From: Acinetobacter phage Mokit
Strand: one strand, 5' to 3'
Sequence record: MW388002.1
DNA: 64,000 nucleotides
The notes under the pieces were generated by a model. That model saw only the letters and a list, made by a program, of their open reading frames with translations. It ran no database searches and was not told the DNA's origin. How positions within the stretch are numbered: the first letter of the stretch is position 1; the number at the start of each line of letters is the position of its first letter. The translations under genes were made by a program, and so were the position numbers. Positions 4,650-54,715 of the stretch are shown piece by piece.

Positions 4650-5108
4650 TTAGTCCTTAAATTCTAGATGACGACATATCTTTTTATGCTTGTCACTAAT
4701 ATATGTGATGAAAATTGATTTTTGGACAGGCGACTCATTTGCACGTTTTATGCGCTTATATACATAAACCTGTCCATGGCCTATGCCAAATACCGCTCCA
4801 AAGCTTGCGGCTACGATTGTAATAAATGTTACGAACCCGATAGGTACTGCTATAATATTAACCCAAAGTGGATTCTCAAATATTGCGCCTGCTGCAACTA
4901 TATCTAGCCCAGTGTATGGATTACACATGATGAATAATGATATGCCTATAGCAAAACAAATAAATGCAGCAATTGCTAAAATTGCTGCACCTATAACCAA
5001 ACGAATTAATAACGTTCTAACATATGCACACAAATTTTTTGGTGGTGTTTTGCCATCAGAAGACCATTTGATAAATCGATAATGCCATGACGATTTCTTA
5101 ATTTCCAT
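4650..5108 (-). CDS. multi-pass membrane protein (152 aa)
   Basis: Three to four hydrophobic segments, e.g. LLIRLVIGAAILAIAAFICFAIGISLFIM. Confidence 0.45.
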   Translation of the reverse strand: MEIKKSSWHYRFIKWSSDGKTPPKNLCAYVRTLLIRLVIGAAILAIAAFICFAIGISLFIMCNPYTGLDIVAAGAIFENPLWVNIIAVPIGFVTFITIVAASFGAVFGIGHGQVYVYKRIKRANESPVQKSIFITYISDKHKKICRHLEFKD

Positions 5109-9524: not shown

Positions 9525-9648
9525 TGCCTGATGGTAAGTTCATCAGGTCTTACAAGCCCTTAAAAGGAACTTATTTGGCAGGCACTGAACGAATCGAACG
9601 CTCGTTAATGGGGTTGGAGCCCACTGTAATAACCACTATACGAAATGC

Positions 9649-9942
9649 CTATAGAAGACAACATGTTGTAATTAGCCATTGATTTTGGCGTTGTAAATTC
9701 GCTGAAGCTCTGCGATCACGTTCTTCAGTTTCACGTCTACGACGTTCATTTTCTCTTTGTCGATCTTCAAACACAGAAGTTTGTCCTTTTGATAGGTGTT
9801 TGAGTTCTTCTCGATATGCATCACGTGCTCGATAACCACCAATACGAGGCAGCCCATTCTCATATGAAGCAACATGTTTATCATTTTGCTTTGCCATTTC
9901 ATTCATACGTTTTGCAAAATTGACATATTTAGAAATACTCAT
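9649..9942 (-). CDS. basic, Arg/Glu-rich protein; start trimmed to MSISKYVNF
   Basis: GGAGAAG RBS 4 nt before the ATG at 9940-9942. The longer track ORF would read into the adjacent tRNA. Confidence 0.4.
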   Translation of the reverse strand: MSISKYVNFAKRMNEMAKQNDKHVASYENGLPRIGGYRARDAYREELKHLSKGQTSVFEDRQRENERRRRETEERDRRASANLQRQNQWLITTCCLL

Positions 9943-9962
9943 AATCTTCTCCAAAAGAAATA

Positions 9963-10051
9963 TGGCGGAAAGCAATGGAATCGAACCATAACCGAATTAA
10001 CAGTCCACTCGCTTAGCAGGCGGCGCCAATCACCTTATTGGTTTACTTTCC
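9963..10051 (-). tRNA. type-II (long variable arm) tRNA-like gene; identity unresolved (Ser GCU or Leu)
   Basis: Reverse-complement reads GGAAAGT...GGTTCGATTCC...GCTTTCCGCCA with a 7-bp acceptor stem, canonical T loop and encoded CCA. I could not hand-fold a clean anticodon stem; the best loop is CTGCTAA on a 3-bp stem. Confidence 0.4.
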
Positions 10052-10057
10052 AAAAAA

Positions 10058-10134
10058 TGGTCCGCCATAAACGATTTGAACGTTTGACCGTATCGTCCCA
10101 AACGATATGCTCTACCAGACTGAGCTAATGGCGG
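10058..10134 (-). tRNA. tRNA-Pro (UGG)
   Basis: Hand fold: acceptor CCGCCAT/ATGGCGG with C1-G72 and A73; D arm GCTC-AGTCTGGTA-GAGC; anticodon stem TATCG/CGATA with loop TTTGGGA; T arm AAACG-TTCAAAT-CGTTT; CCA encoded. Confidence 0.7.
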
Positions 10135-10253
10135 TTAATTGCTGTGAAATGTCCTTTTATACTTTCGAGCATTTCACCACTCAATAAGTAAATCTTGAAG
10201 CTTTGTTTGTTTTACAAGAGGAAACTTCGTCCTGCTTATCAAGCAATTAAATA

Positions 10254-10348
10254 TGGCGGAAGGTGAGGGGAACGATCCCTCAAGGCGTATCACTACGCTC
10301 GCTGGTTTTCAAGACCAGTGCCGTCGCCAGCCATCGGCTTGACCTTCC
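10254..10348 (-). tRNA. tRNA-Ser (UGA), type II
   Basis: Acceptor GGAAGGT/ACCTTCC; anticodon stem CTGGT/ACCAG with loop CTTGAAA; variable-arm hairpin GCGTA-GTGA-TACGC; T stem GAGGG/CCCTC; CCA encoded. Confidence 0.65.
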
Positions 10349-10400
10349 ATTTAATTAACATGACGACCTAGGAATTTACGCCATTAGGACACCTAGGACC

Positions 10401-10423
10401 ATTTACGTCATTTCTTAAATTTG
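10401..10423. repeat. 23-bp direct repeat ATTTACGTCATTTCTTAAATTTG, copy 1
   Basis: Identical copy at 10655-10677. This copy overlaps the stop codon of the small minus-strand gene 10408-10587. Confidence 0.7.
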
Positions 10424-10587
10424 TCATCCTGTTTCATACGTCCTTTGGACATTTCAAAGGCTCTGCGAAGATTGTGTTTTGTTTCTTCACGAGAATCGCC
10501 AGTGATTCTCGTGGCACTAATACCATTGCCCATCTGCACAAGTTCAACAATTGCAGGATTTACATTTCGATTAGCCATTTTATTCAT
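10408..10587 (-). CDS. small hypothetical protein (59 aa) nested in the tRNA cluster
   Basis: ATG at 10585-10587 with GGAG 7 nt upstream, TGA at 10408-10410. It falls below the 60-aa cutoff of the ORF track, whose plus-strand 10421..10672 ORF looks spurious. Confidence 0.3.
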   Translation of the reverse strand: MNKMANRNVNPAIVELVQMGNGISATRITGDSREETKHNLRRAFEMSKGRMKQDDKFKK

Positions 10588-10654
10588 AATATTACTCCAT
10601 TTGGAGTTTAAGAAAACCTTCTTGTTTTACAATGGTTTTTCTTGGAAAGGTCTT

Positions 10655-10677
10655 ATTTACGTCATTTCTTAAATTTG
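10655..10677. repeat. 23-bp direct repeat, copy 2, abutting the 3' end of tRNA-Asn
   Basis: Same 23-mer as 10401-10423. Confidence 0.7.
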
Positions 10678-10751
10678 GCTCCCCGAGCAGGTCTCGAACC
10701 TGCGACACATGGATTAACAGTCCACCGCTCTACCAACTGAGCTATCGAGGA
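10676..10751 (-). tRNA. tRNA-Asn (GUU)
   Basis: Acceptor TCCTCGA/TCGGGGA; D arm GCTC-AGTTGGTA-GAGC; anticodon stem GTGGA/TCCAT with loop CTGTTAA; T arm GCAGG-TTCGAGA-CCTGC; CCA encoded. Confidence 0.7.
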
Positions 10752-10757
10752 ATTATA

Positions 10758-10834
10758 TGGCCGATCTGACAGGACTCGAACCTGTGACCTACTGCTTAGA
10801 AGGCAGATGTTCTATCCAACTGAACTACAGACCG
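10758..10834 (-). tRNA. tRNA-Arg (UCU)
   Basis: Acceptor CGGTCTG/CAGATCG; anticodon stem TCTGC/GCAGA with loop CTTCTAA; T arm ACAGG-TTCGAGT-CCTGT; CCA encoded. T4 carries the same isoacceptor. Confidence 0.7.
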
Positions 10835-10848
10835 ATAAATTCTTAAAG

Positions 10849-10919
10849 TTCTGGCACGAGGAATCGAACCTCGGTGACTGGAGTACAAAACCAGCATAAT
10901 ACCACTATATGATGCCAGA
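10849..10919 (-). tRNA. tRNA-Thr (UGU); CCA not encoded
   Basis: Perfect acceptor TCTGGCA/TGCCAGA; anticodon loop TTTGTAC on a 4-bp stem with one T.T mismatch; T arm CGAGG-TTCGATT-CCTCG. Confidence 0.6.
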
Positions 10920-11235
10920 ACTTTAAAAACTTGATAATATTATTTATACAACCATAAAGGCACCGTCATGACCACTCATCAAGAACACAGTGAGTTAAAA
11001 CTTTTTATGATGAGATTAATAAGGTTTGATCGAAAACATTTGAACTCTGCTAAATAAAAACTTTGATCTTTAAGATTTTAGCTTTGAACTTTAGCCTTGG
11101 GATAATGTACAGGATTCGCGCTTGGGAAACCTATATCACCATCAAAGTTCTATAGCATTAGAAGTTAGCTGTTTTTAGGAAAATCAGCTAGAACCCTCTA
11201 CAGTTTTTGATCATGGCGATTATAACTTTAACCTA

Positions 11236-11802
11236 TCAGTCGAGAACAACTGTAGGGTTTGTTTCTGTTAAAATTGCATCGAATTCTAAATCAAAGAAGT
11301 CGATAGTAGTTTTGAGTTCATCAATTTCTTTTTGAATGTCCATAATCGATGGTTTTTCTCGTTGTTCCAATAATTGCTTGAACTCATCATCATTTGCAAA
11401 CTTTGCAACTTTTGCATCATAATCTCGTTCAATATTAATAAATGATGAACGAGCAGCAGCTAATTCTTTTACTAGGCGTGAATGGAGCGCCTTTAACTGT
11501 GGCAAGATATGAGTACGATAAGTAAGTGCGTCATTAATTGACATACGTTTATCGCCAACGTCTACCATTGTTTCAAAATTTGCCTTATTGATTTTAACAC
11601 GAAGGTCAAATTCTGCTGCGAGTTTATCTTTCACAGATTGTACATTTTTACGAGATGTTTCTACGAATTCAGCGGTTTTAATACCGGTAGAAGTTTCTAC
11701 ACCATTACGAAATACACCACAGAATCGCATTTCACGGAGATCATCTGCGAATACTGCACGATTACGTTTAAGTGTTACTAATGCACGAGCGATGGTAGTC
11801 AT
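11236..11802 (-). CDS. hypothetical protein (188 aa) inside the tRNA region
   Basis: ORF track; charged, helical-looking translation. Confidence 0.45.
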   Translation of the reverse strand: MTTIARALVTLKRNRAVFADDLREMRFCGVFRNGVETSTGIKTAEFVETSRKNVQSVKDKLAAEFDLRVKINKANFETMVDVGDKRMSINDALTYRTHILPQLKALHSRLVKELAAARSSFINIERDYDAKVAKFANDDEFKQLLEQREKPSIMDIQKEIDELKTTIDFFDLEFDAILTETNPTVVLD

Positions 11803-11875
11803 TTAAATTTCCTCTAATCATATAAGCTTTAAGTGTATGAAGTAATTATATAACAAATTTCGTAAAGCAAGTAAC

Positions 11876-12112
11876 TTATGAATAAGTTTTTGTTGCAATA
11901 TAAAATTCTTGTTCAATTAATTTTTCGTTGAGGCGTCTGTATGCTTCATTACGATTCAAAAATTGAGATCGTTTATTTGAAACTTCGACAACTATGCCAG
12001 TAACGACATGAGTAACACGTACACCATTGTAAGGACGATTGATCCAATTACTTGCACCTTTAGCTCTAAATTCCTGAACAATTATTTCAGAAGGAGTAAA
12101 GACATAGTTCAT
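11876..12112 (-). CDS. hypothetical protein (~78 aa); start trimmed to MNYVFTPSE
   Basis: The ORF-track N-terminus overlaps the tRNA at 12132-12208. The internal ATG at 12110-12112 has a GAGGA RBS. Confidence 0.35.
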   Translation of the reverse strand: MNYVFTPSEIIVQEFRAKGASNWINRPYNGVRVTHVVTGIVVEVSNKRSQFLNRNEAYRRLNEKLIEQEFYIATKTYS

Positions 12113-12131
12113 AACAATATCCTCAAATATA

Positions 12132-12208
12132 TGGTGGGCCCACCCGTGACTCGAACCGAGATCTGTCAAATTATGAGTTTGATGTTTTACCAATTAAACT
12201 ACAGGCCC
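12132..12208 (-). tRNA. tRNA with CAU anticodon (Met or lysidine-Ile type); T arm atypical
   Basis: Acceptor GGGCCTG/TGGGCCC (two G.U pairs); D arm GTTT-AATTGGTA-AAAC; perfect anticodon stem TCAAA/TTTGA with loop CTCATAA; T loop TTCGAGT but only 4 of 5 stem pairs; CCA encoded. Confidence 0.5.
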
Positions 12209-12212
12209 TTAA

Positions 12213-12455
12213 TTATTTTAACTTAATCTGAGCTTCAAAAACAAATCGATAATTATCGTCTGTTAAAATTTTAGCTCGTTCATAAGTGGTTGCCATTCTT
12301 AAAACAGCACCATTATATGAAACAATAGCAAATACACAATTTTTCGAGTTTTCATTAGCGATTTCGCCAACTTTAAAACGAACTTTTCTATAAGTATATT
12401 TATCATCATACTTGCATAGAAATTGTGCTAAGTTTTTAGAAAAAGTGAAACGCAT
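12213..12455 (-). CDS. hypothetical protein (80 aa)
   Basis: ORF track. Confidence 0.4.
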   Translation of the reverse strand: MRFTFSKNLAQFLCKYDDKYTYRKVRFKVGEIANENSKNCVFAIVSYNGAVLRMATTYERAKILTDDNYRFVFEAQIKLK

Positions 12456-12574
12456 AATTTTGCCTTCACCATTAAAAATCCCATAGATACTTCGTGCTGA
12501 AGTTTTATCTATACATTTGCGACAAATCTAATGTTTCATAATAATTCCTTATATAGATTCAACAAAAAATAATT

Positions 12575-12676
12575 TGGTGGATACTGGGAGTGCTTGCACC
12601 TCCAAATCAACGAGGATCATCAACTCTAGAAGTTTCACCTATTGCGCTGCTTTACTATTTAAGCTATCAGTACCCA
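12575..12676 (-). ncRNA. tRNA-like or stable-RNA candidate (~100 nt)
   Basis: Reverse-complement starts GGTACTG and ends CAGTATCCACCA (acceptor-like pairing plus CCA) with a T-arm-like GGAGG-TGCAAGC-ACTCC. The interior does not fold as a tRNA. It recalls the tRNA-like RNAs C and D of the T4 tRNA region. Confidence 0.25.
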
Positions 12677-12680
12677 TAAT

Positions 12681-12755
12681 TGGTCATCGATCGGAGATTC
12701 GAACTCCGGCACCCAGATTTAGAGTCTGTTGGTCTAACCGCTAACCTAATCGACG
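12681..12755 (-). tRNA. tRNA with CUA anticodon (amber-suppressor-type)
   Basis: Hand fold of the reverse complement: acceptor CGTCGAT/ATCGATG with A73 and CCA; D arm GGTT-AGCGGTTA-GACC; anticodon stem (A)CAGA/TCTG(G) with 7-nt loop CTCTAAA (U33, anticodon C34-U35-A36, A37); 4-nt variable loop; T arm CGGAG-TTCGAAT-CTCCG. CUA pairs with UAG. Confidence 0.5.
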
Positions 12756-12778: not shown

Positions 12779-12871
12779 CAGATGATGGGACTCGAACCAC
12801 ATATCAACCGGGTTTAACAGGCCGGTTATGCTCCAGTATCAGGCGCAAGCTTAACCAATTAGCTACTACCA
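12779..12871 (-). ncRNA. tRNA-like element with canonical T arm (GGTTCGAGTCCC) flanked by an 18-bp perfect inverted repeat
   Basis: GTAACTTTTTAATAACAT (12761-12778) is the reverse complement of ATGTTATTAAAAAGTTAC (12872-12889). Interior has D-arm-like AGCT-AATTGGTTA-AGCT and a CTGTTAA loop but no acceptor pairing. Confidence 0.3.
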
Positions 12872-12920
12872 ATGTTATTAAAAAGTTACCTCAATGAAGA
12901 GGTAACCCGAGGTAATTCAA

Positions 12921-19409: not shown

Positions 19410-19868
19410 ATGGCATCAATATTACCTTCAAATTCAATGTTGGCAACAGTTATAGAAGGCGCAAACGTAAGTTTCGCCTTCACCGCTGCGTTAGCACCAA
19501 CAGAAAAATTGGTCAGTTTAAAAATTGTTCAAACTGATTTTCCATCATATATAACTATAAATGGAGCATCATTTAGCGGAAAGTTTATAAATTTATTCCA
19601 ATTGCCAATTAATTCATTAAAATATCGTAAGGGCCTTGAATATGGACAGGCTTCAACGTTTGGCGAATTACCGCCTAAAGGCACGGCAGACTTATACTCA
19701 TTCACTGCACCTACAGTTATGTTAAAGAATTTTAACATTAAGGTTGAACTCGTTTATACGGATGAATCAAATCCTACAACCGAATTAAATATAACTAATA
19801 CGTATGTCCAGCCTGTCCAAGGTAATTGGGATACATTTAAACAACAATTTTTAGAATATGTGAGATAG
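19410..19868 (+). CDS. gp5.1-like hypothetical protein
   Basis: Position between genes 5 and 5.4. Ends with a TAG stop, the only TAG stop seen among ~35 stops checked in this window. Confidence 0.4.
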   Translation: MASILPSNSMLATVIEGANVSFAFTAALAPTEKLVSLKIVQTDFPSYITINGASFSGKFINLFQLPINSLKYRKGLEYGQASTFGELPPKGTADLYSFTAPTVMLKNFNIKVELVYTDESNPTTELNITNTYVQPVQGNWDTFKQQFLEYVR

Positions 19869-45255: not shown

Positions 45256-46836
45256 ATGTCTCAATTCAAACAAAAAACTAAAGAACAATTACTAGAAACT
45301 TGGGGAGATTTCCTCACAGCTGAAGGCCTTCCGGTAATTGACGAAAGCCGCCACGTAGTAATGGCAAAGATCTTTGAGAACCAAGAGCAAGATTTCCTTA
45401 CTGGCACAGAATACCGTGATCCCGAAATCGTTAAAGCATTCTCTGGATTCTTGACTGAAGCAGAAATTGGTGGTGACCATGGTTACGATGCAACAAATAT
45501 TGCTGCTGGTCAAACATCAGGTGCTGTAACTCAAATCGGTCCTGCTGTAATGGGTATGGTACGTCGTGCAATTCCTAACTTAATCGCATTTGATATTTGT
45601 GGTGTACAGCCTTTAAACGGTCCTACAGGCCAAATCTTCTCGTTACGCTCAGTATATGGTAAAGATCCATTAGCTGCTGGTGCTAAAGAAGCTTTCCACC
45701 CAATGCTATCTCCGGATACAATGCATTCAGGTCAAGGCGCTGCTGAAGCATTCCCAGTTGCTGCAGCAGGTGATGTACTTGCAATCGGTGACATTCGTCG
45801 TCATGACTTTGCTGATACCGGCCGTGTATACATTCAAGCAGTTAAAGCAGTAACAGTTGATGCAGATGCAACGACTCCTGAATTGTTAGACATCGAAGTT
45901 AAAAAACTAATGGAAGCAGGTACAATTGCCGAAATTGGTGAAGGTATGGCTACTTCGGTTGCTGAACTTCAAGAAGGTTTCAATGGTTCACAAAATAACC
46001 CTTGGAACGAAATGGGTTTCCGTATCGACAAACAATCAGTTGAAGTTAAATCTCGTCAATTAAAAGCTCAATACTCAATCGAACTTGCACAAGATTTGAA
46101 AGCTGTTCACGGTATGGATGCTGACGCTGAATTAGCTGGTATCCTTGCAACAGAAATTATGCTTGAAATCAACCGTGAAATCGTTGATTGGATCAACTTC
46201 TCAGCACAAGTTGGTAAAACTGGCTTCACACAAACAAGTGGTTCTAAAGCAGGTGTATTTGACTTCCAAGATCCGATCGATGTTAAAGGTGCACGTTGGG
46301 CTGGTGAAGCTTACAAAGCGTTGTTAATCCAAATCGATAAAGAAGCTTCAGAAATTGCTCGTCAAACTGGTCGTGGTATTGGTAACTTCATTATCGCTTC
46401 TCGTAACGTTGTAATGGCTCTTGCTCAAGTTGATGAACGTGTTAGCCCTGCCGCTCAAGGTCTTGCATCTGGCATGAACTATGACACAACTAAAGCAACA
46501 TTTGCTGGTGTACTTGGTGGTCGTTACCGTGTATATATTGACCAATATGCTCGTCAAGACTACTTCACAGTTGGTTTTAAAGGTTCAAGCGAATTGGATG
46601 CTGGTATTTACTACAGCCCATACGTTCCATTAACTCCATTACGTGGTTCTGATCCGAAAAACTTCCAACCAGTAATGGGCTTCAAAACTCGTTATGCAGT
46701 TGGTATCAACCCATTTGCAGATACATCAGCTCAAGCTCCTGCAGGTAATCGTCGTATTAGCAATGGTATGCCGACTATCGAGAATTCAGCTGGTAAAAAT
46801 GGTTACTTCCGCAAAGTTTTCGTTAAAGGAATCTAA
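45256..46836 (+). CDS. 23: major capsid protein gp23
   Basis: Blocks LTEAEIGGDHGY.ATNIAAGQTSGAVTQIGPAVMGMVRRAIPNLIAFDICGVQP and YYSPYVPLTPLRGSDPKNFQPVMGFKTRY match T4 gp23. Strong terminator at 46863-46885. Confidence 0.9.
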   Translation: MSQFKQKTKEQLLETWGDFLTAEGLPVIDESRHVVMAKIFENQEQDFLTGTEYRDPEIVKAFSGFLTEAEIGGDHGYDATNIAAGQTSGAVTQIGPAVMGMVRRAIPNLIAFDICGVQPLNGPTGQIFSLRSVYGKDPLAAGAKEAFHPMLSPDTMHSGQGAAEAFPVAAAGDVLAIGDIRRHDFADTGRVYIQAVKAVTVDADATTPELLDIEVKKLMEAGTIAEIGEGMATSVAELQEGFNGSQNNPWNEMGFRIDKQSVEVKSRQLKAQYSIELAQDLKAVHGMDADAELAGILATEIMLEINREIVDWINFSAQVGKTGFTQTSGSKAGVFDFQDPIDVKGARWAGEAYKALLIQIDKEASEIARQTGRGIGNFIIASRNVVMALAQVDERVSPAAQGLASGMNYDTTKATFAGVLGGRYRVYIDQYARQDYFTVGFKGSSELDAGIYYSPYVPLTPLRGSDPKNFQPVMGFKTRYAVGINPFADTSAQAPAGNRRISNGMPTIENSAGKNGYFRKVFVKGI

Positions 46837-46862
46837 GGTTCCTTTAACCTTAACTTAAAAAG

Positions 46863-46885
46863 AAAGGAGTCTCATATGACTCCTT
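46863..46885 (+). terminator. intrinsic terminator AAAGGAGTCTCATATGACTCCTTTTTT after gene 23
   Basis: 9-bp stem plus T6. Confidence 0.7.
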
Positions 46886-46902
46886 TTTTATTGATCTCTG
46901 AA

Positions 46903-46910
46903 TATAAATA
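46903..46910 (+). promoter_or_regulatory. late promoter TATAAATA upstream of gene 24
   Basis: Exact 8-mer between the gp23 terminator and ATG 46957. Confidence 0.6.
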
Positions 46911-46956
46911 TTATAGAAAAATCAATAATGGTAAGTGGTCTATATAGGAAAACAAC

Positions 46957-48225
46957 ATGAAATATATCGATAAAATTATTCGAGAGTCTACAACATCGCA
47001 AGATAATGTCGATTCTAGACCTTCGCTTTTAGCATTAACAAGAGCTACAACAAATTTAGTTTATCACGATTTAGTCGCTACACAATATACAGATCAGCCT
47101 ATTGCCGCTTTATATGGTGTAAAATATTTGAATCCTAATAAAGAATTAACATTTGTTACAGGTGCAACTTATTCAGGTGCAATCGGCACAGAAGATAGAA
47201 AAACCATGCCTGAGTTGACTGGAGCTACTCCTATGTCAAAAGGCACTTTATTCAAGTATACCGATGTCGTCTTCAAGGCACTAGTAGATAATCCTTTTGC
47301 TGGAACTACAGAAACAGACGTATTTGATATTTTATCAGAAGCGGTTGCGGCAAACAATGTCAGAATGGTTCCAGAAGCCGCAGATACCGCCAAATTTGAA
47401 GGAGTAGAATCCGACATCGCTGAAGCGTCATTTGAAATTAATAAATGGCAAGCTCCAGTAAAATCTAGAAAATTTAAAGCTGAATTAACGGTTGAACTTG
47501 CGCAAGATATGGAAGCATCAGGATTTGATGCACCTGAAACCATTGAGGATTTACTTGCCACTCAAATGGCAGAAGAAATCAACAAAGACATTTTACAATC
47601 ATTGGTAACAGTATCATCAAGATTTAAAGTGAAAGGTGTTTCTGATAAAGGAGTTTTAGATTTATCTGATCCTAATATCCCTTCAACAACACAAGGTCGT
47701 GAGTTATACCGCTTCATCTGCGAAATGAATGCTCAAATTCAAAGACAAACTTCATATTCAGCCACTTATGTTGTAGCAAGCTCTAGAGTTGCAGCACTGT
47801 TAACGGCTTCAGGGTGGTTGAAAAAAGAAGATGACCAACCTTACGCATCTGCAGGAATTCTTAATAATGGTTTAGTACTTTATTGCGACAACAATAGCCC
47901 AGTTGAATATGTTGTTGTTGGAGTTAAAGCTGAATACGGTGATAATGAAATGGTAGGATCTTTGTTCTATGCTCCATACGCCGAAGGTTTTAATAAAGAA
48001 GCTGATCCTACTGACCACATTGGAATGTATAAAGTTATCAATGATTCTAGCAGCTTACAACCACGAGTTGCTCTATTGGTAAGATATGCTCTGTGCGTAA
48101 ATCCATACACAGTAGGTTTAAATGATCAAGAAGCTCGAGTTGTTGATGCGAGCGACATGGATCAATTCGCAGGTCAAAGTAAAATGTCAGTTTTATTAGG
48201 TTTAAAATTGCCTAAGTTGGTATAA
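46957..48225 (+). CDS. 24: head vertex protein gp24 (gp23 paralogue)
   Basis: 422 aa, near the ~430 aa I recall for T4 gp24; late promoter at 46903-46910. Confidence 0.8.
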   Translation: MKYIDKIIRESTTSQDNVDSRPSLLALTRATTNLVYHDLVATQYTDQPIAALYGVKYLNPNKELTFVTGATYSGAIGTEDRKTMPELTGATPMSKGTLFKYTDVVFKALVDNPFAGTTETDVFDILSEAVAANNVRMVPEAADTAKFEGVESDIAEASFEINKWQAPVKSRKFKAELTVELAQDMEASGFDAPETIEDLLATQMAEEINKDILQSLVTVSSRFKVKGVSDKGVLDLSDPNIPSTTQGRELYRFICEMNAQIQRQTSYSATYVVASSRVAALLTASGWLKKEDDQPYASAGILNNGLVLYCDNNSPVEYVVVGVKAEYGDNEMVGSLFYAPYAEGFNKEADPTDHIGMYKVINDSSSLQPRVALLVRYALCVNPYTVGLNDQEARVVDASDMDQFAGQSKMSVLLGLKLPKLV

Positions 48226-48243
48226 TATAAAAATTAAACACAA

Positions 48244-48268
48244 AAGGGACTCATATGAGTCCCTTTTT
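48244..48268. terminator. bidirectional terminator AAAGGGACTCATATGAGTCCCTTTTT between convergent genes 24 and hoc
   Basis: 10-bp stem, A run before, T run after. Confidence 0.7.
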
Positions 48269-48280
48269 AAGGTTTTGATA

Positions 48281-51200
48281 TTAGTAAATTATTCCAATAT
48301 CGATTTGATTCTTTGTGATAATCCAACCGTGTCTAGATTCTTGAATTTCGACATTAGGATAATCTTGAATCATTTTAGCAATTGTCAATAATTCACAGGC
48401 ATATTTTAATCCATTAGCTTCAGGATTTTTCCAATCTATTCCTTTGGCAACAGCTTCCTGTAATTCATCCAATACCCAATATCCACACCAAATAAATGAT
48501 GAGTCTCTTGAATCAAGTGGATGAATGTGTCTAATACAATCGCCTTCGATTGGAGGACTCGCAACTGAAATCTCTACACTAAGTTCAATAACTCTATCCA
48601 AATAATCAGGATGCTTAAATGTTACTGTAACACTAGATGTAGATTTTCCTGGAGCAGTAGGAGTAACTGATACCGCCTGTGTAGTAGCTCCATTGTTCCA
48701 AAGATATGTTATCGAAGTCCCATCAACAGATGTCATCGCATCAACTGTAGCTTCATAAGATTCACCCAAAGTAATAGATTCTTTATCAACTGATATATTA
48801 GCTACTCCTTGTACAACAATCTTCTCAACTTTGATTTTGACACCATTTGATGAAACAATCGCTTCATCATAATCTGGATGAGTTGCAGTAACCACACAAT
48901 TTAGTGTATAGTCGCCGGCCAAATGCTCAGATCTAGTAACAGTTTTTGAAGTTTCTCCTGTTGACCATTTATATGCAAATGTTGATCCATTTGGAGCATT
49001 TTTAACATCGACACTAACACTGAAGGATTCATCCTGCTTTACTGTTGTTTTAGTTGCACTAGCTTCAGCAGTAATACTCATTACCATTTTATTGGCAGTC
49101 ATTTCAACTTCTTTTGTCAGAACTACATTATCAGCACCCTCTGCTACAGTGGTAGAGGTTACTTTAATTTTATGTTTTCCTGCTACAGTTGGAGTATAAT
49201 CAAGGTAGTTTGTTGTCGAAGGATTTTTCGTTCCATCAACTTCCCACGCATATGTTGTGCTAGAATCTGCGGGTGCACCTTCTACTAAAGCTGTAAATCT
49301 TTGTGAGTCCTTTATTGTTACTACTGCGTCAGTAGGTAACAGACTTAATGTAATGGCCATTTCTCGTTTTTCCGTTGTTACGTTAAATTTTTCATCTAAT
49401 ATTAAATCTCCATCATAATCAGGATGGCTAAGTCGAGCTTTAGTAGAAATCTCATGTTGTCCTGGATTTACCGCTGCCACTGTGAATGAGTCCTTAATAT
49501 CAGAGAGTGATATAAATTTATCATCGATAAACCATGACACAGAATCAACAGATAATTGATCAAAATTTTCTACTAATTCTTTTCCTACTATTGAAGCGCT
49601 AACAATTAGATTTTCACCCCATTTCAGTAATGTCTTATTTGGAACTAAATCTAAACTAAGATTAGGCCAAGCCTTCCTATTAATATCAATTGTAGATTCA
49701 TGTGAACTCACAGGAGTATCATTAAATCCATCTTTCTTAACTATAGCGGATGCCGATATTGTATAGTTAAAATTTTCGGCTTTCATTGTTATCTCAGGAG
49801 ATGTCACAATTTTGCCATTTATTTTCCAAGTGATATTCTCAGTAGTTGCTCCATCAGGTAAATTAGTCCACTTAGGTTTAATCGTGAAAGTCTGATCCAA
49901 AGTTATATTAGTTGGAACAGTTTCAAAATCCAAAATGGGTGTAGGATCAATAGGATTGTCTAGCACCTCTAAAATAATATCAGATTCTGCTACAAGAGGA
50001 ACGGCATCCACATACATATCATCAGTAAATGTATGTCTAATTTTACCGACTAATTGTTTAGATTCATTCGGTAATGTATAAGAGAATTTTCCATTTACTG
50101 CTTCAACTACAGGATTGCCTTGGAAGTCAATAAGTTCATATTTACCCTTTTTAGATAAAGTTTCAATCTCTTGGGCATACTCTGCTGGGGTATCTTTTAT
50201 GTAATCCAATAAATTAATAACATCAAATTCAATAAGATTACCTTTGGCACCAGAGAAGTAGAAATTGTTTGAAGCTGTTAAGAATTTACCATCTACTCTA
50301 AAAATACCTTTAGCATTCCACTCAGGTTGTTTTCCAATAGTGACAGTTTTAGAAATCTCAAAATCTTGTTGTTCAAAATATGGATTCTCTTTTGATTTAC
50401 CTGATACTTTAATCTCTACCGTTTTACCGCATAAAGAAGGTTCGATATATTCCATTGAATAAAAATTAGGAGTAGTTGGAATTCCTGAGAAAACTTCTAC
50501 ACCGTCTATAGTTACTTTTGCGACATCCTTATCTGAAATTTCAAATGGATAATTTTTATAATCAGGAACACCAGAATATGTACCGTTTACACCAATGCTT
50601 TCACCTGATCCGTGACCCCAATACATTTTTTCAAAGTAATATAGGCCAACGATTTCAGCTGAATGTGGCGCAGCAATCATCTTAACAAATTCAATTGGAA
50701 CTTCAGGTGATGTTACAGTAACACCTTCATAGTCATCAGATTTAACGGATACTATGCACTTGACGTTATATGTGCCAACTTCTTTCCTAGTAAAAATTAG
50801 ATCCTTTTCACTTCCGGCGTGGTCACCATTAACAGACCAATCATAAGATATAGATACTCCCGCAGGTGCTCCAGTTACATTGGCAGTAAAATTAGCAGAT
50901 GAAGTGATCTCTGCTGAAGGAGAACTTGAATTTACAGTTACTGAAATTCCATCCATTGTACTTTTTACACTGTTTACTACAGTTTCATCAGTTATAACAA
51001 TAGTTTCGGAACCTTTGGTAACAGTAACTTCAACTTTAAATGTATCAGTTCCCACTTTCTCATATGGATATGTTACAGGTTTATCTTCAGAAAATAACAC
51101 TCCATTTTTATACCATTTTTGAGTGGCAGTATAAGGTAATGCAACACCAGTAACAGTATAATCTAATACGGCAGATTGACCTATACTAATAGTAACATTA

Positions 51201-54130: not shown

Positions 54131-54392
54131 AAGGTTTGCTCCAGAATGTTAGAATTTTGCCACATAGCTCGTCGTCACCTAAACTAAAGATGACTGAACA
54201 AATTTTATCATGATCTTCCTCATCAAAATATGCCAATAATTTAATCATTGACTCCTTTGTACCATCGGAAAATACTAAACATTTTCCAGCTTTATTACGC
54301 AAAGTAATTTCTTGGCACCAGTTATGTACTTCAAGTTTAAGTATGCCATGGTTTGTGTTGAGTGTCAATGCAGCTGTAGGTATAGTAAGCAT
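54120..54392 (-). CDS. hypothetical protein (90 aa)
   Basis: ORF track; translationally coupled to its neighbours. Confidence 0.4.
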   Translation of the reverse strand: MLTIPTAALTLNTNHGILKLEVHNWCQEITLRNKAGKCLVFSDGTKESMIKLLAYFDEEDHDKICSVIFSLGDDELCGKILTFWSKPYEI

Positions 54393-54715
54393 TACTTGTA
54401 CTCCTTTTCATCAACATAAAATTCAATGTATTTTTCGGTATCCTTGGAACTTGCGTATGCTATTACAACACCACGTTCAAAATCAAAATCTTTGACCAAT
54501 AAGCGCTCATGCCATGGATCAATAGCCCAACCAAATGGAAATTTGCGGTATGGGCAAACGTAATGTACGTTACATTCTTCAACACCATTGAATTTTAGCC
54601 CAGGCGAACCTACAAATTGAACTACCCAACGTTCAGATGCATTACGTACCGATGGTACGTCGCATGTCAATTTTGTTGTTTCAGCGCGAAATGAAGTAAT
54701 TTTACGGTTGCTCAT
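54392..54715 (-). CDS. hypothetical protein (107 aa)
   Basis: ORF track. Confidence 0.4.
   Translation of the reverse strand: MSNRKITSFRAETTKLTCDVPSVRNASERWVVQFVGSPGLKFNGVEECNVHYVCPYRKFPFGWAIDPWHERLLVKDFDFERGVVIAYASSKDTEKYIEFYVDEKEYK

Follow-up and report, generated by a model that had tools for sequence, protein, structure and literature searches.

A tRNA gene with a CUA anticodon

The stretch of DNA analyzed here, 64,000 nucleotides (nt) of Acinetobacter phage Mokit (MW388002.1; referred to below as the window), contains a cluster of phage tRNA genes on the minus strand, and the subject of this report is the gene at the head of that cluster, which encodes a tRNA with the anticodon CUA. The tRNAs of the cluster are interspersed with small open reading frames (ORFs), and the CUA tRNA is the last of them in coordinates and the first in transcription (Table 1). 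Phage Melin (MW388003.1; Straboviridae, Twarogvirinae, Hadassahvirus) shares 99.9% identity with the window, and its record has the same tRNA at 77062-77136 as CPT_Melin_157, labelled tRNA-Pyl. An earlier note on this DNA had described the phage tRNA as well formed, with a CUA anticodon, and the genome as T4-like; the analysis reported here supports that description.

ARAGORN calls a 75-nt tRNA on the minus strand exactly at this locus, with the anticodon cta at position 34. The Rfam model RF00005 matches it over its full length (model positions 1 to 71 of 71) with 57.6 bits, the gathering score being 29; the E value is 7.9e-10 for a search space of 64 kb, the size of the window. The covariance-model alignment sets C-U-A in the 7-nt loop CUCUAAA with full posterior probability. 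The cloverleaf is also the minimum-free-energy fold; its folding-energy z-score (-0.48) carries no information, which is commonly the case with tRNAs.

The acceptor stem has 7 bp (CGUCGAU/AUCGAUG), with C1-G72 and a G2.U71 wobble, and is joined by U8-A9 to a 4-bp D stem (GGUU/GACC) that bears the 8-nt D loop AGCGGUUA, including G18G19. The anticodon stem (ACAGA/UCUGG) has 5 bp, with an A27.G43 mismatch on top and A31-U39, and the loop below it contains U33. A 4-nt variable loop (GUGC) is followed by a 5-bp T stem (CGGAG/CUCCG) with the T loop UUCGAAU, and the discriminator A73 precedes a gene-encoded CCA. ARAGORN and the covariance-model alignment thus confirm the cloverleaf that had been folded by hand (7-bp acceptor stem, A73, CCA, GG in the D loop, and a TTCGAAT T loop), together with the placement of CUA at positions 34 to 36 of the 7-nt loop CTCTAAA. 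An anticodon elsewhere, in a loop of 8 to 9 nt, and a pseudogene score were both looked for, and neither was found. By its score, its 7/4/5/5-bp cloverleaf, and the compensatory changes described below, the molecule is a canonical elongator tRNA of the RF00005 family. The locus is a real tRNA gene with an anticodon complementary to the UAG stop codon.

Table 1. Coordinates of the CUA tRNA gene and of the features discussed with it (window positions unless an accession number is given)
Feature	Position	Strand	Basis or remark
tRNA gene, anticodon CUA, CCA encoded	12681..12755	minus	ARAGORN, Rfam, cloverleaf minimum-free-energy fold, covariation, Melin annotation
Anticodon C34-U35-A36, reads UAG	12720..12722	minus	Sequence, covariance-model alignment, ARAGORN structure; plus strand reads "tag"
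7-nt anticodon loop CUCUAAA	12718-12724	minus	
Phage tRNA cluster: CUA, Met, Thr, Arg, Asn, Ser, Pro, Ser, Trp (transcription order)	9576..12755	minus	ARAGORN, Melin annotation
Hairpin with T-run, annotated terminator closing the upstream gene block	12880..12911	minus	Melin annotation 77261-77287; sequence GGGTTACCTCTTCATTGAGGTAACTTTTT
Decayed tRNA-like element	12781..12875	minus	Between terminator and CUA tRNA; sequence comparison with Acj9
78-aa RF-1-domain ORF without GGQ	11876..12112	minus	Pfam PF00472, E 7e-12; phrog_20323
TAG-terminated CPT_Melin_145	9649-9942	minus	25-codon extension; potential read-through substrate
TAG-terminated gp5.1	19410-19868	plus	6-codon extension; potential read-through substrate
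fHyAci03 chimera, annotated "tRNA-Met, possible truncation"	NC_049438.1 77151-77218		No ARAGORN call

Prior annotation

The earlier note had implied that the gene was new. It is already known as an annotated feature: the GenBank entry for Melin contains it, as do about 60 related records, and it was listed by Jin et al. in 2014 (PMC4177764, Table 2), where ZZ1t008, "Sup (CTA)," appears with its homologue Acj9t18, "Pyl (CTA)," without further discussion. Features named tRNA-Pyl, tRNA-TERM, or tRNA-Sup-CTA are found in the records of Melin, AbTZA1, Maestro, Morttis, Stupor, and others; tRNA-Sup-CTA is the label in AbTZA1, and ZZ1 has "possible suppressor tRNA; anti code:CTA." ZZ1t008, Acj9t18, and these GenBank features belong to the same gene family and lie at the same genomic position, and nothing about them is different in kind from the gene described here. 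Our search of the literature for a function of this tRNA found nothing past the listing of 2014. The covariation, the several body types, the natural knockout, and the lack of recoding reported below are new in this analysis.

Homologues and covariation

A CUA tRNA occupies the same position in phages of four Twarogvirinae genera, namely Melin (Hadassahvirus), Stupor (Lazarusvirus), Acj9 (Acajnonavirus), and ZZ1 (Zedzedvirus). In each it opens the tRNA cluster and is preceded by gene 57B and two small ORFs. The four tRNAs are only 61 to 73% identical in pairwise comparisons. With each tRNA in its own register, 82 of 84 stem cells are nevertheless paired, and 16 of the 21 stem pairs show double-sided compensatory changes, which places the gene far beyond chance. 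A fifth, very different body is found in PhT2, a phage of the same genus as Melin, with an anticodon arm equal to that of the Stupor type. None of these five divergent bodies departs from the loop C(U/C)CUAAA or from A73, and A36-A37-A38 is constant in all homologues compared.

Other positions vary. The pair 1-72 is C1-G72 in Melin, A1-U72 in the Stupor type, and G1-C72 in the PhT2 type. The Melin type itself has a single stem substitution, a change of U71 to C (AbTZA1 and Bhz15), which turns the G2.U71 wobble into G2-C71 and keeps the pairing. The blastn matches comprise 9 phage records with the Melin type, 4 with the ZZ1 type, 2 with the Acj9 type, and about 46 Acinetobacter phage records with the Stupor type. 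Taken together, the alignments show that the body of the tRNA has been swapped or reshuffled repeatedly, with at least five swaps, while CUA, A37, A38, and A73 have persisted.

In the CUA tRNA of PhT2 (MN864865.1, 132482-132554) the 3' acceptor strand seems to contain one additional U, and the re-sequenced PhT2-v2 (OZ038336.1) carries a Melin-type CUA tRNA instead. Either the tRNA locus of PhT2 is mosaic or one of the two records (MN864865.1 or OZ038336.1) contains an error.

Stop-codon usage and the genetic code

Stop codons were counted in coding-potential-filtered ORFs, with the whole Melin genome assembled around the window. Among 241 genes, 169 end in TAA, 62 in TGA, and 10 (4.1%) in TAG, a number as low as expected at the GC content of 36%; the view that TAG is a rare stop codon in this genome is supported. 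Those TAG-terminated ORFs of Melin that could be checked, in the region compared with the annotation of the record, all match annotated coding sequences. Within the window, TAG ends 2 of the 72 wholly contained genes. The earlier tally of about 35 stops with a single TAG, at gp5.1, was thus roughly right, and the filtered set adds CPT_Melin_145 as a second TAG-terminated gene. The TAG of the latter overlaps the first two bases of tRNA-Trp (9576-9650, minus), which its extension would cross. For gp5.1, the stop is TGA in the ZZ1 orthologue and TAA in that of phage 133. TAG stops number 10 of 170 genes in the first 100 kb of ZZ1 and 11 of 129 in 78 kb of phage 133, which has no CUA tRNA and a higher GC content.

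A coding-potential scan of Melin found no convincing in-frame TAG or split gene. Among 556 protein high-scoring segment pairs (HSPs) linking Melin, ZZ1, phage 133, Stupor, and Acj9, none crosses a mid-gene stop; the 13 stops within these alignments all lie at HSP ends, and all three stop codons are represented among them. With no mid-gene TAG in either the scan or the alignments, and with TAG still terminating genes, Melin therefore keeps the standard genetic code.

The extensions behind the ten TAG stops of Melin are 1 to 81 codons long and, barring one in-frame neighbor gene, score poorly or below zero for coding potential. The search for in-frame extensions conserved behind TAG, which the earlier note had proposed, turned up none, either in the comparison of Melin with orthologues in ZZ1 and phage 133 or in the coding-potential scan. 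Of five Melin TAG genes with orthologues in ZZ1, a single one keeps its TAG there.

The in-frame neighbor belongs to CPT_Melin_105, a 66-aa protein (record positions 54390-54590, minus) whose TAG-terminated gene is in frame with a gp45.2 homologue (54144-54380, minus). The spacer is three codons long (TAG AGG TAT ACG ATG), and suppression would fuse both proteins. The layout is not conserved in ZZ1 and is thus probably due to chance.

Parentage and charging

The short variable loop makes the CUA tRNA a class I tRNA, so that bacterial tRNAs for Tyr, Leu, and Ser are excluded as parents. Alignment to other tRNAs, by which the parent isoacceptor was to be found, gave a divided result. The similarity rankings stay at background: by global identity to 38 + 14 phage tRNAs the top match is tRNA-Ile GAU at 0.65 to 0.69, a background level, and a core-only ranking (positions 8 to 43, 241 phage tRNAs) places tRNA-Gln of phage 133 2nd, 10th, and 8th, which is not distinctive. 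A position-specific scoring matrix classifier of isotypes, with a cross-validated accuracy of just 59%, gives negative log-odds throughout for Melin, Acj9, and ZZ1, and leans toward Lys for the bodies of PhT2 (+6.5) and Stupor (+0.2). A Pro-type origin, suggested in the earlier note from C1-G72 and A73, was rejected; C1-G72 is not conserved in the homologues, and tRNA-Pro is near the top of none of the rankings.

The D arm, the anticodon stem, and the 4-nt variable loop, on the other hand, point to a tRNA-Gln-like body in Melin, Acj9, and ZZ1. Among the matches listed, 64 bacterial tRNAs have the Melin D arm; Gln(CUG) accounts for 60 of them and Trp(CCA) for 3, in a sample rich in alphaproteobacteria. 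The CUA tRNA and the tRNA-Gln(UUG) of phages 133 and Acj61 agree in the anticodon stem (ACAGA/UCUG), in having a 4-nt variable loop, and at acceptor positions 2 to 5, and the 7-nt D loop of that tRNA-Gln is also present in the CUA alleles of Acj9 and ZZ1. The distribution of the two tRNAs is complementary. Melin, Stupor, Acj9, ZZ1, and PhT2 have the CUA tRNA and no tRNA-Gln (ARAGORN and the Melin annotation find none in the cluster of Table 1), 133 and Acj61 have tRNA-Gln(UUG) and no CUA tRNA, and Ac42 and fHyAci03 have neither; the two occur together in none of the phages examined, which represent few lineages. This pattern is consistent with a CUA tRNA that descends from, or has replaced, a phage tRNA-Gln.

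Amber suppressors bearing U35 are charged by lysyl-tRNA synthetase (LysRS) or glutaminyl-tRNA synthetase (GlnRS); A73 and A31-U39 favor Lys, whereas G73, a weak 1-72 pair, and C31-G39 favor Gln (PMC9976931, PMC1483225). The identity set of Escherichia coli GlnRS consists of U1-A72, G2-C71, G3-C70, G10, Y34, U35, G36, A37, U38, and G73 (PMC1483225). The acceptor end of the Melin tRNA lacks the determinants U1-A72, G3-C70, and G73, and in place of GlnRS elements the molecule has C1-G72, U3-A70, A36, A38, and A73; the AbTZA1 and Bhz15 alleles add G2-C71 to the GlnRS elements. The rules for the class II LysRS of E. coli favor U35, A73, U34/U36, and A31-U39 (PMC1483225, PMC9976931); of these, U35, A73, and A31-U39 are present in Melin, C34 is tolerated, and U36 is absent, as it is in every amber suppressor. 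G2.U71 is a reported antideterminant for this LysRS (PMC9976931). By E. coli rules, the Melin allele would thus lean toward Lys and the Stupor type (A1-U72, C31-G39) toward Gln. With C1-G72 and A73 at the acceptor end and the GlnRS determinants missing from it, Lys may be inserted instead of Gln.

A probable host-charged amber suppressor

The gene probably encodes a functional elongator-type tRNA that decodes UAG, is charged by the host, and allows partial read-through at low cost while the standard code is kept. The CUA tRNA would be made as part of the cluster transcript and matured by the RNase P of the host. The motif A36-A37-A38 is a feature of MiaA (i6A37) substrates and would make the CUA tRNA a likely one. 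Charging would fall to a host synthetase that relies on U35, most likely LysRS in the case of the Melin allele (U35, C34, A73, and A31-U39); the Gln-like body makes GlnRS the alternative. Once charged, the tRNA would compete with release factor 1 (RF1) at UAG, and a fraction of ribosomes would read through. The cost of suppression would be small, since TAG is the stop of no more than about 4% of genes and few extensions are long. The most plausible benefit would be that amber codons are tolerated or rescued in a genome of low GC content, a state of "suppressor acquired, not yet recoded" that we infer after Borges et al. An anticodon loop that is fixed while the body around it is swapped, together with the lack of recoding and of conserved read-through targets, argues for a further step: UAG decoding itself seems to be the object of selection.

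Several observations weigh against this interpretation. TAG stops are not significantly rarer where a CUA tRNA is present, at 20 of 411 genes (4.9%) in Melin and ZZ1 taken together versus 11 of 129 (8.5%) in phage 133, a comparison (Fisher P = 0.13) that is confounded by GC content. Back-up stops are not enriched after TAG, the median extension being 16 codons versus 8 after TAA and 6 after TGA. The Melin tRNA has only 4 of the 10 elements of the GlnRS identity set (G10, C34, U35, and A37), and its G2.U71 wobble, which is G2-C71 in sister alleles, could reduce activity together with the A27.G43 mismatch. The CUA tRNA was not found in phage 133 (16 tRNAs), Acj61 (14 tRNAs), or Ac42 (6 tRNAs), and it has been lost from fHyAci03 (Lazarusvirus, host A. 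pittii) by a deletion between similar D arms. The deletion destroyed both the CUA tRNA and the tRNA(CAU) next to it, leaving a chimera (Table 1) in which 24 nt from the 5' end of the former run into the 3' portion of the latter. The CUA tRNA is accessory, not essential; since it has been lost in a viable phage and is missing from three others, any benefit must be conditional.

Neighboring features

Directly before the tRNA cluster stands a hairpin that is annotated as the terminator of the upstream gene block. A scan for sigma-70 promoter and terminator consensus sequences around the CUA tRNA gave no more hits than shuffled sequence, and the annotated hairpin was not called in it. Between this hairpin and the CUA tRNA lies a tRNA-like element that had no ARAGORN call at a relaxed threshold and no Rfam match at E <= 1. 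At the corresponding position, Acj9 has a 93-nt "tRNA-Tyr(GUA)" called by ARAGORN (positions 4879-4971 of the Acj9 stretch) with a closely similar D-arm segment. The element is either a decaying tRNA gene or an uncharacterized small RNA.

One of the small ORFs within the cluster encodes a homologue of release-factor domain 3. It aligns to residues 234 to 300 of RF2, and GAGGQH is replaced in it by GAS-NW; its homologues in Stupor, fHyAci03, Acj9, and phage 133 likewise have no catalytic GGQ motif. The predicted product could be a catalytically dead mimic of termination or ribosome binding. A strict linkage of this ORF to the CUA tRNA was considered and rejected, as the ORF occurs alone in phage 133 and Ac42 and the tRNA alone in ZZ1.

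Outside the window, and unrelated to the CUA tRNA, the DNA polymerase gene of Melin (record positions 46198-50655, minus) is annotated as "intron interrupted," with a 2.9-kb insert that holds five small ORFs. The annotations of ZZ1 and phage 133 show a polymerase split into 43A and 43B, with ORFs between them.

Alternative explanations

The CUA tRNA might have no decoding role, being an uncharged or poorly charged RNA that serves as a decoy for a host nuclease aimed at tRNAs or as a regulator, or a relic that does nothing. We regard this as fairly unlikely. Phage tRNAs are reported to counter tRNA-cleaving defenses (for example, PMC11464382). Known decoys of anticodon nucleases, however, mimic sense tRNAs, and a CUA anticodon matches no host tRNA. 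The G2.U71 and A27.G43 pairs of the Melin allele speak for a non-decoding role or a relic, as do a body that no sense-isotype model fits, the decayed tRNA-like element that directly adjoins the gene, and the dispensability of the tRNA in fHyAci03 and its absence from three relatives. A relic, however, would not have retained its stems through 16 compensatory pairs, or a fixed loop and A73 over five bodies and about 60 isolates, and A36-A37-A38, A73, and the encoded CCA are the marks of a tRNA that decodes and can be charged.

The CUA tRNA could also be part of a deliberate manipulation of termination, perhaps with the GGQ-less RF-domain protein, which could occupy the ribosome without hydrolyzing peptidyl-tRNA. 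Its benefit would then depend on the host strain and might lie, for example, in defeating a host or prophage defense that depends on termination at UAG or in rescuing genomes with amber codons from C-to-T damage. Such manipulation seems an unlikely purpose for the gene. If true, it would be a stable strategy of "suppression without recoding," distinct from the code switching of crAss-like and Lak phages.

It is quite unlikely that the tRNA serves programmed read-through, that is, extended or fused versions of particular TAG-terminated phage proteins. Candidates are present among the ten TAG-terminated genes of Melin, of which the one at 54390-54590 would be fused to the gp45.2 homologue by read-through, and ZZ1 has a TAG-terminated ORF in frame with gp61.1. 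These stops turn over, however: the orthologues of four of the five Melin TAG genes represented in ZZ1 end in TAA or TGA there. Apart from the accidental in-frame neighbor, the coding scores of the extensions are poor. About one adjacent gene pair in three is expected to be in frame by chance, and phage 133, which has no suppressor, shows an equally long in-frame arrangement at gp5.4-gp6.

A further alternative is that TAG is a sense codon, or is becoming one in a manner like that of code 15, and that the CUA tRNA is needed to translate the genes concerned. Recoded phages, among them crAss-like, Lak, Agate, and Jade phages, typically have CUA suppressor tRNAs, low GC content, and rare TAG stops, and Melin resembles them in its 36% GC and 4% TAG stops. 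It differs in being a T4-like strabovirus of a gammaproteobacterial host in which no in-frame TAG was detected. The conserved genes contain none, no gene is convincingly split, and no alignment crosses a mid-gene TAG; TAG still acts as a terminator in both Melin (10 of 241 genes, 10 of them annotated) and ZZ1 (10 of 170), and fHyAci03 is viable without the CUA tRNA. Recoding is thus a very improbable explanation.

Finally, the tRNA-Pyl of the GenBank and ARAGORN labels is effectively excluded, as the sole support for it, and the only trait in common, is the CUA anticodon, for which ARAGORN gives the name "Pyl" to any tRNA, while other annotators have named the same gene Sup or TERM, and the Melin annotation tables examined contain no pyrrolysyl-tRNA synthetase or Pyl-biosynthesis gene, although no search was aimed at pylS or pylBCD. 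tRNA-Pyl has a compact, atypical fold, with a short D loop without GG, no canonical T loop, a 3-nt variable loop, and an elongated anticodon stem, unlike the canonical cloverleaf seen here, with its 8-nt D loop with G18G19, UUCGAAU, 5-bp anticodon stem, and 4-nt variable loop; the two-base link from acceptor to D stem is likewise a trait in which tRNA-Pyl is atypical.

Relation to known systems and significance

Close parallels to a host-charged suppressor are the classical bacterial amber suppressors supE (tRNA-Gln CUG to CUA) and su7 (tRNA-Trp CCA to CUA, which receives Gln). They belong to class I, have a CUA anticodon, are charged by host synthetases reading U35, and compete with RF1, as proposed here, and the body of the Melin, Acj9, and ZZ1 tRNAs is Gln-like in its D arm, anticodon stem, and 4-nt variable loop. 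Those suppressors are laboratory mutations, whereas the CUA tRNA described here is natural and conserved and has C1-G72 and A73 at its acceptor end. In a pattern scan of IMG/VR, ARAGORN called at least 123 CUA tRNAs in at least 120 loci, several of which are T4-type and encode gp32, gp59, RegA, gp44, and rIIA.

Suppressor tRNAs are the usual companions of TAG recoding, and the route proposed for it leads from low GC content through rare TAG stops to a suppressor in a standard-code phage and then to in-frame TAGs (Borges et al., bioRxiv 10.1101/2021.08.26.457843). The same authors report that low-GC relatives with the standard code have acquired suppressors, which they propose as a precursor state. 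In this scheme Melin corresponds to the third stage, and across the four genera the state appears to be stable, not transitional.

The label tRNA-Pyl, which is given because of the CUA anticodon alone, is wrong in dozens of GenBank records, and tRNA-Sup(CUA) is the proper one. Some read-through of UAG is to be expected in phage therapy or expression work with infected cells. The viable isolate fHyAci03 is a natural knockout of the suppressor that can be compared with its sister Lazarusvirus phages. Suppressor tRNAs that nature maintains in standard-code phages have been catalogued but not explained. The culturable, therapy-relevant phages of A. baumannii offer a tractable system in which to ask what suppression without recoding is for, be it mutational buffering, a step toward a change of code, or manipulation of the host.

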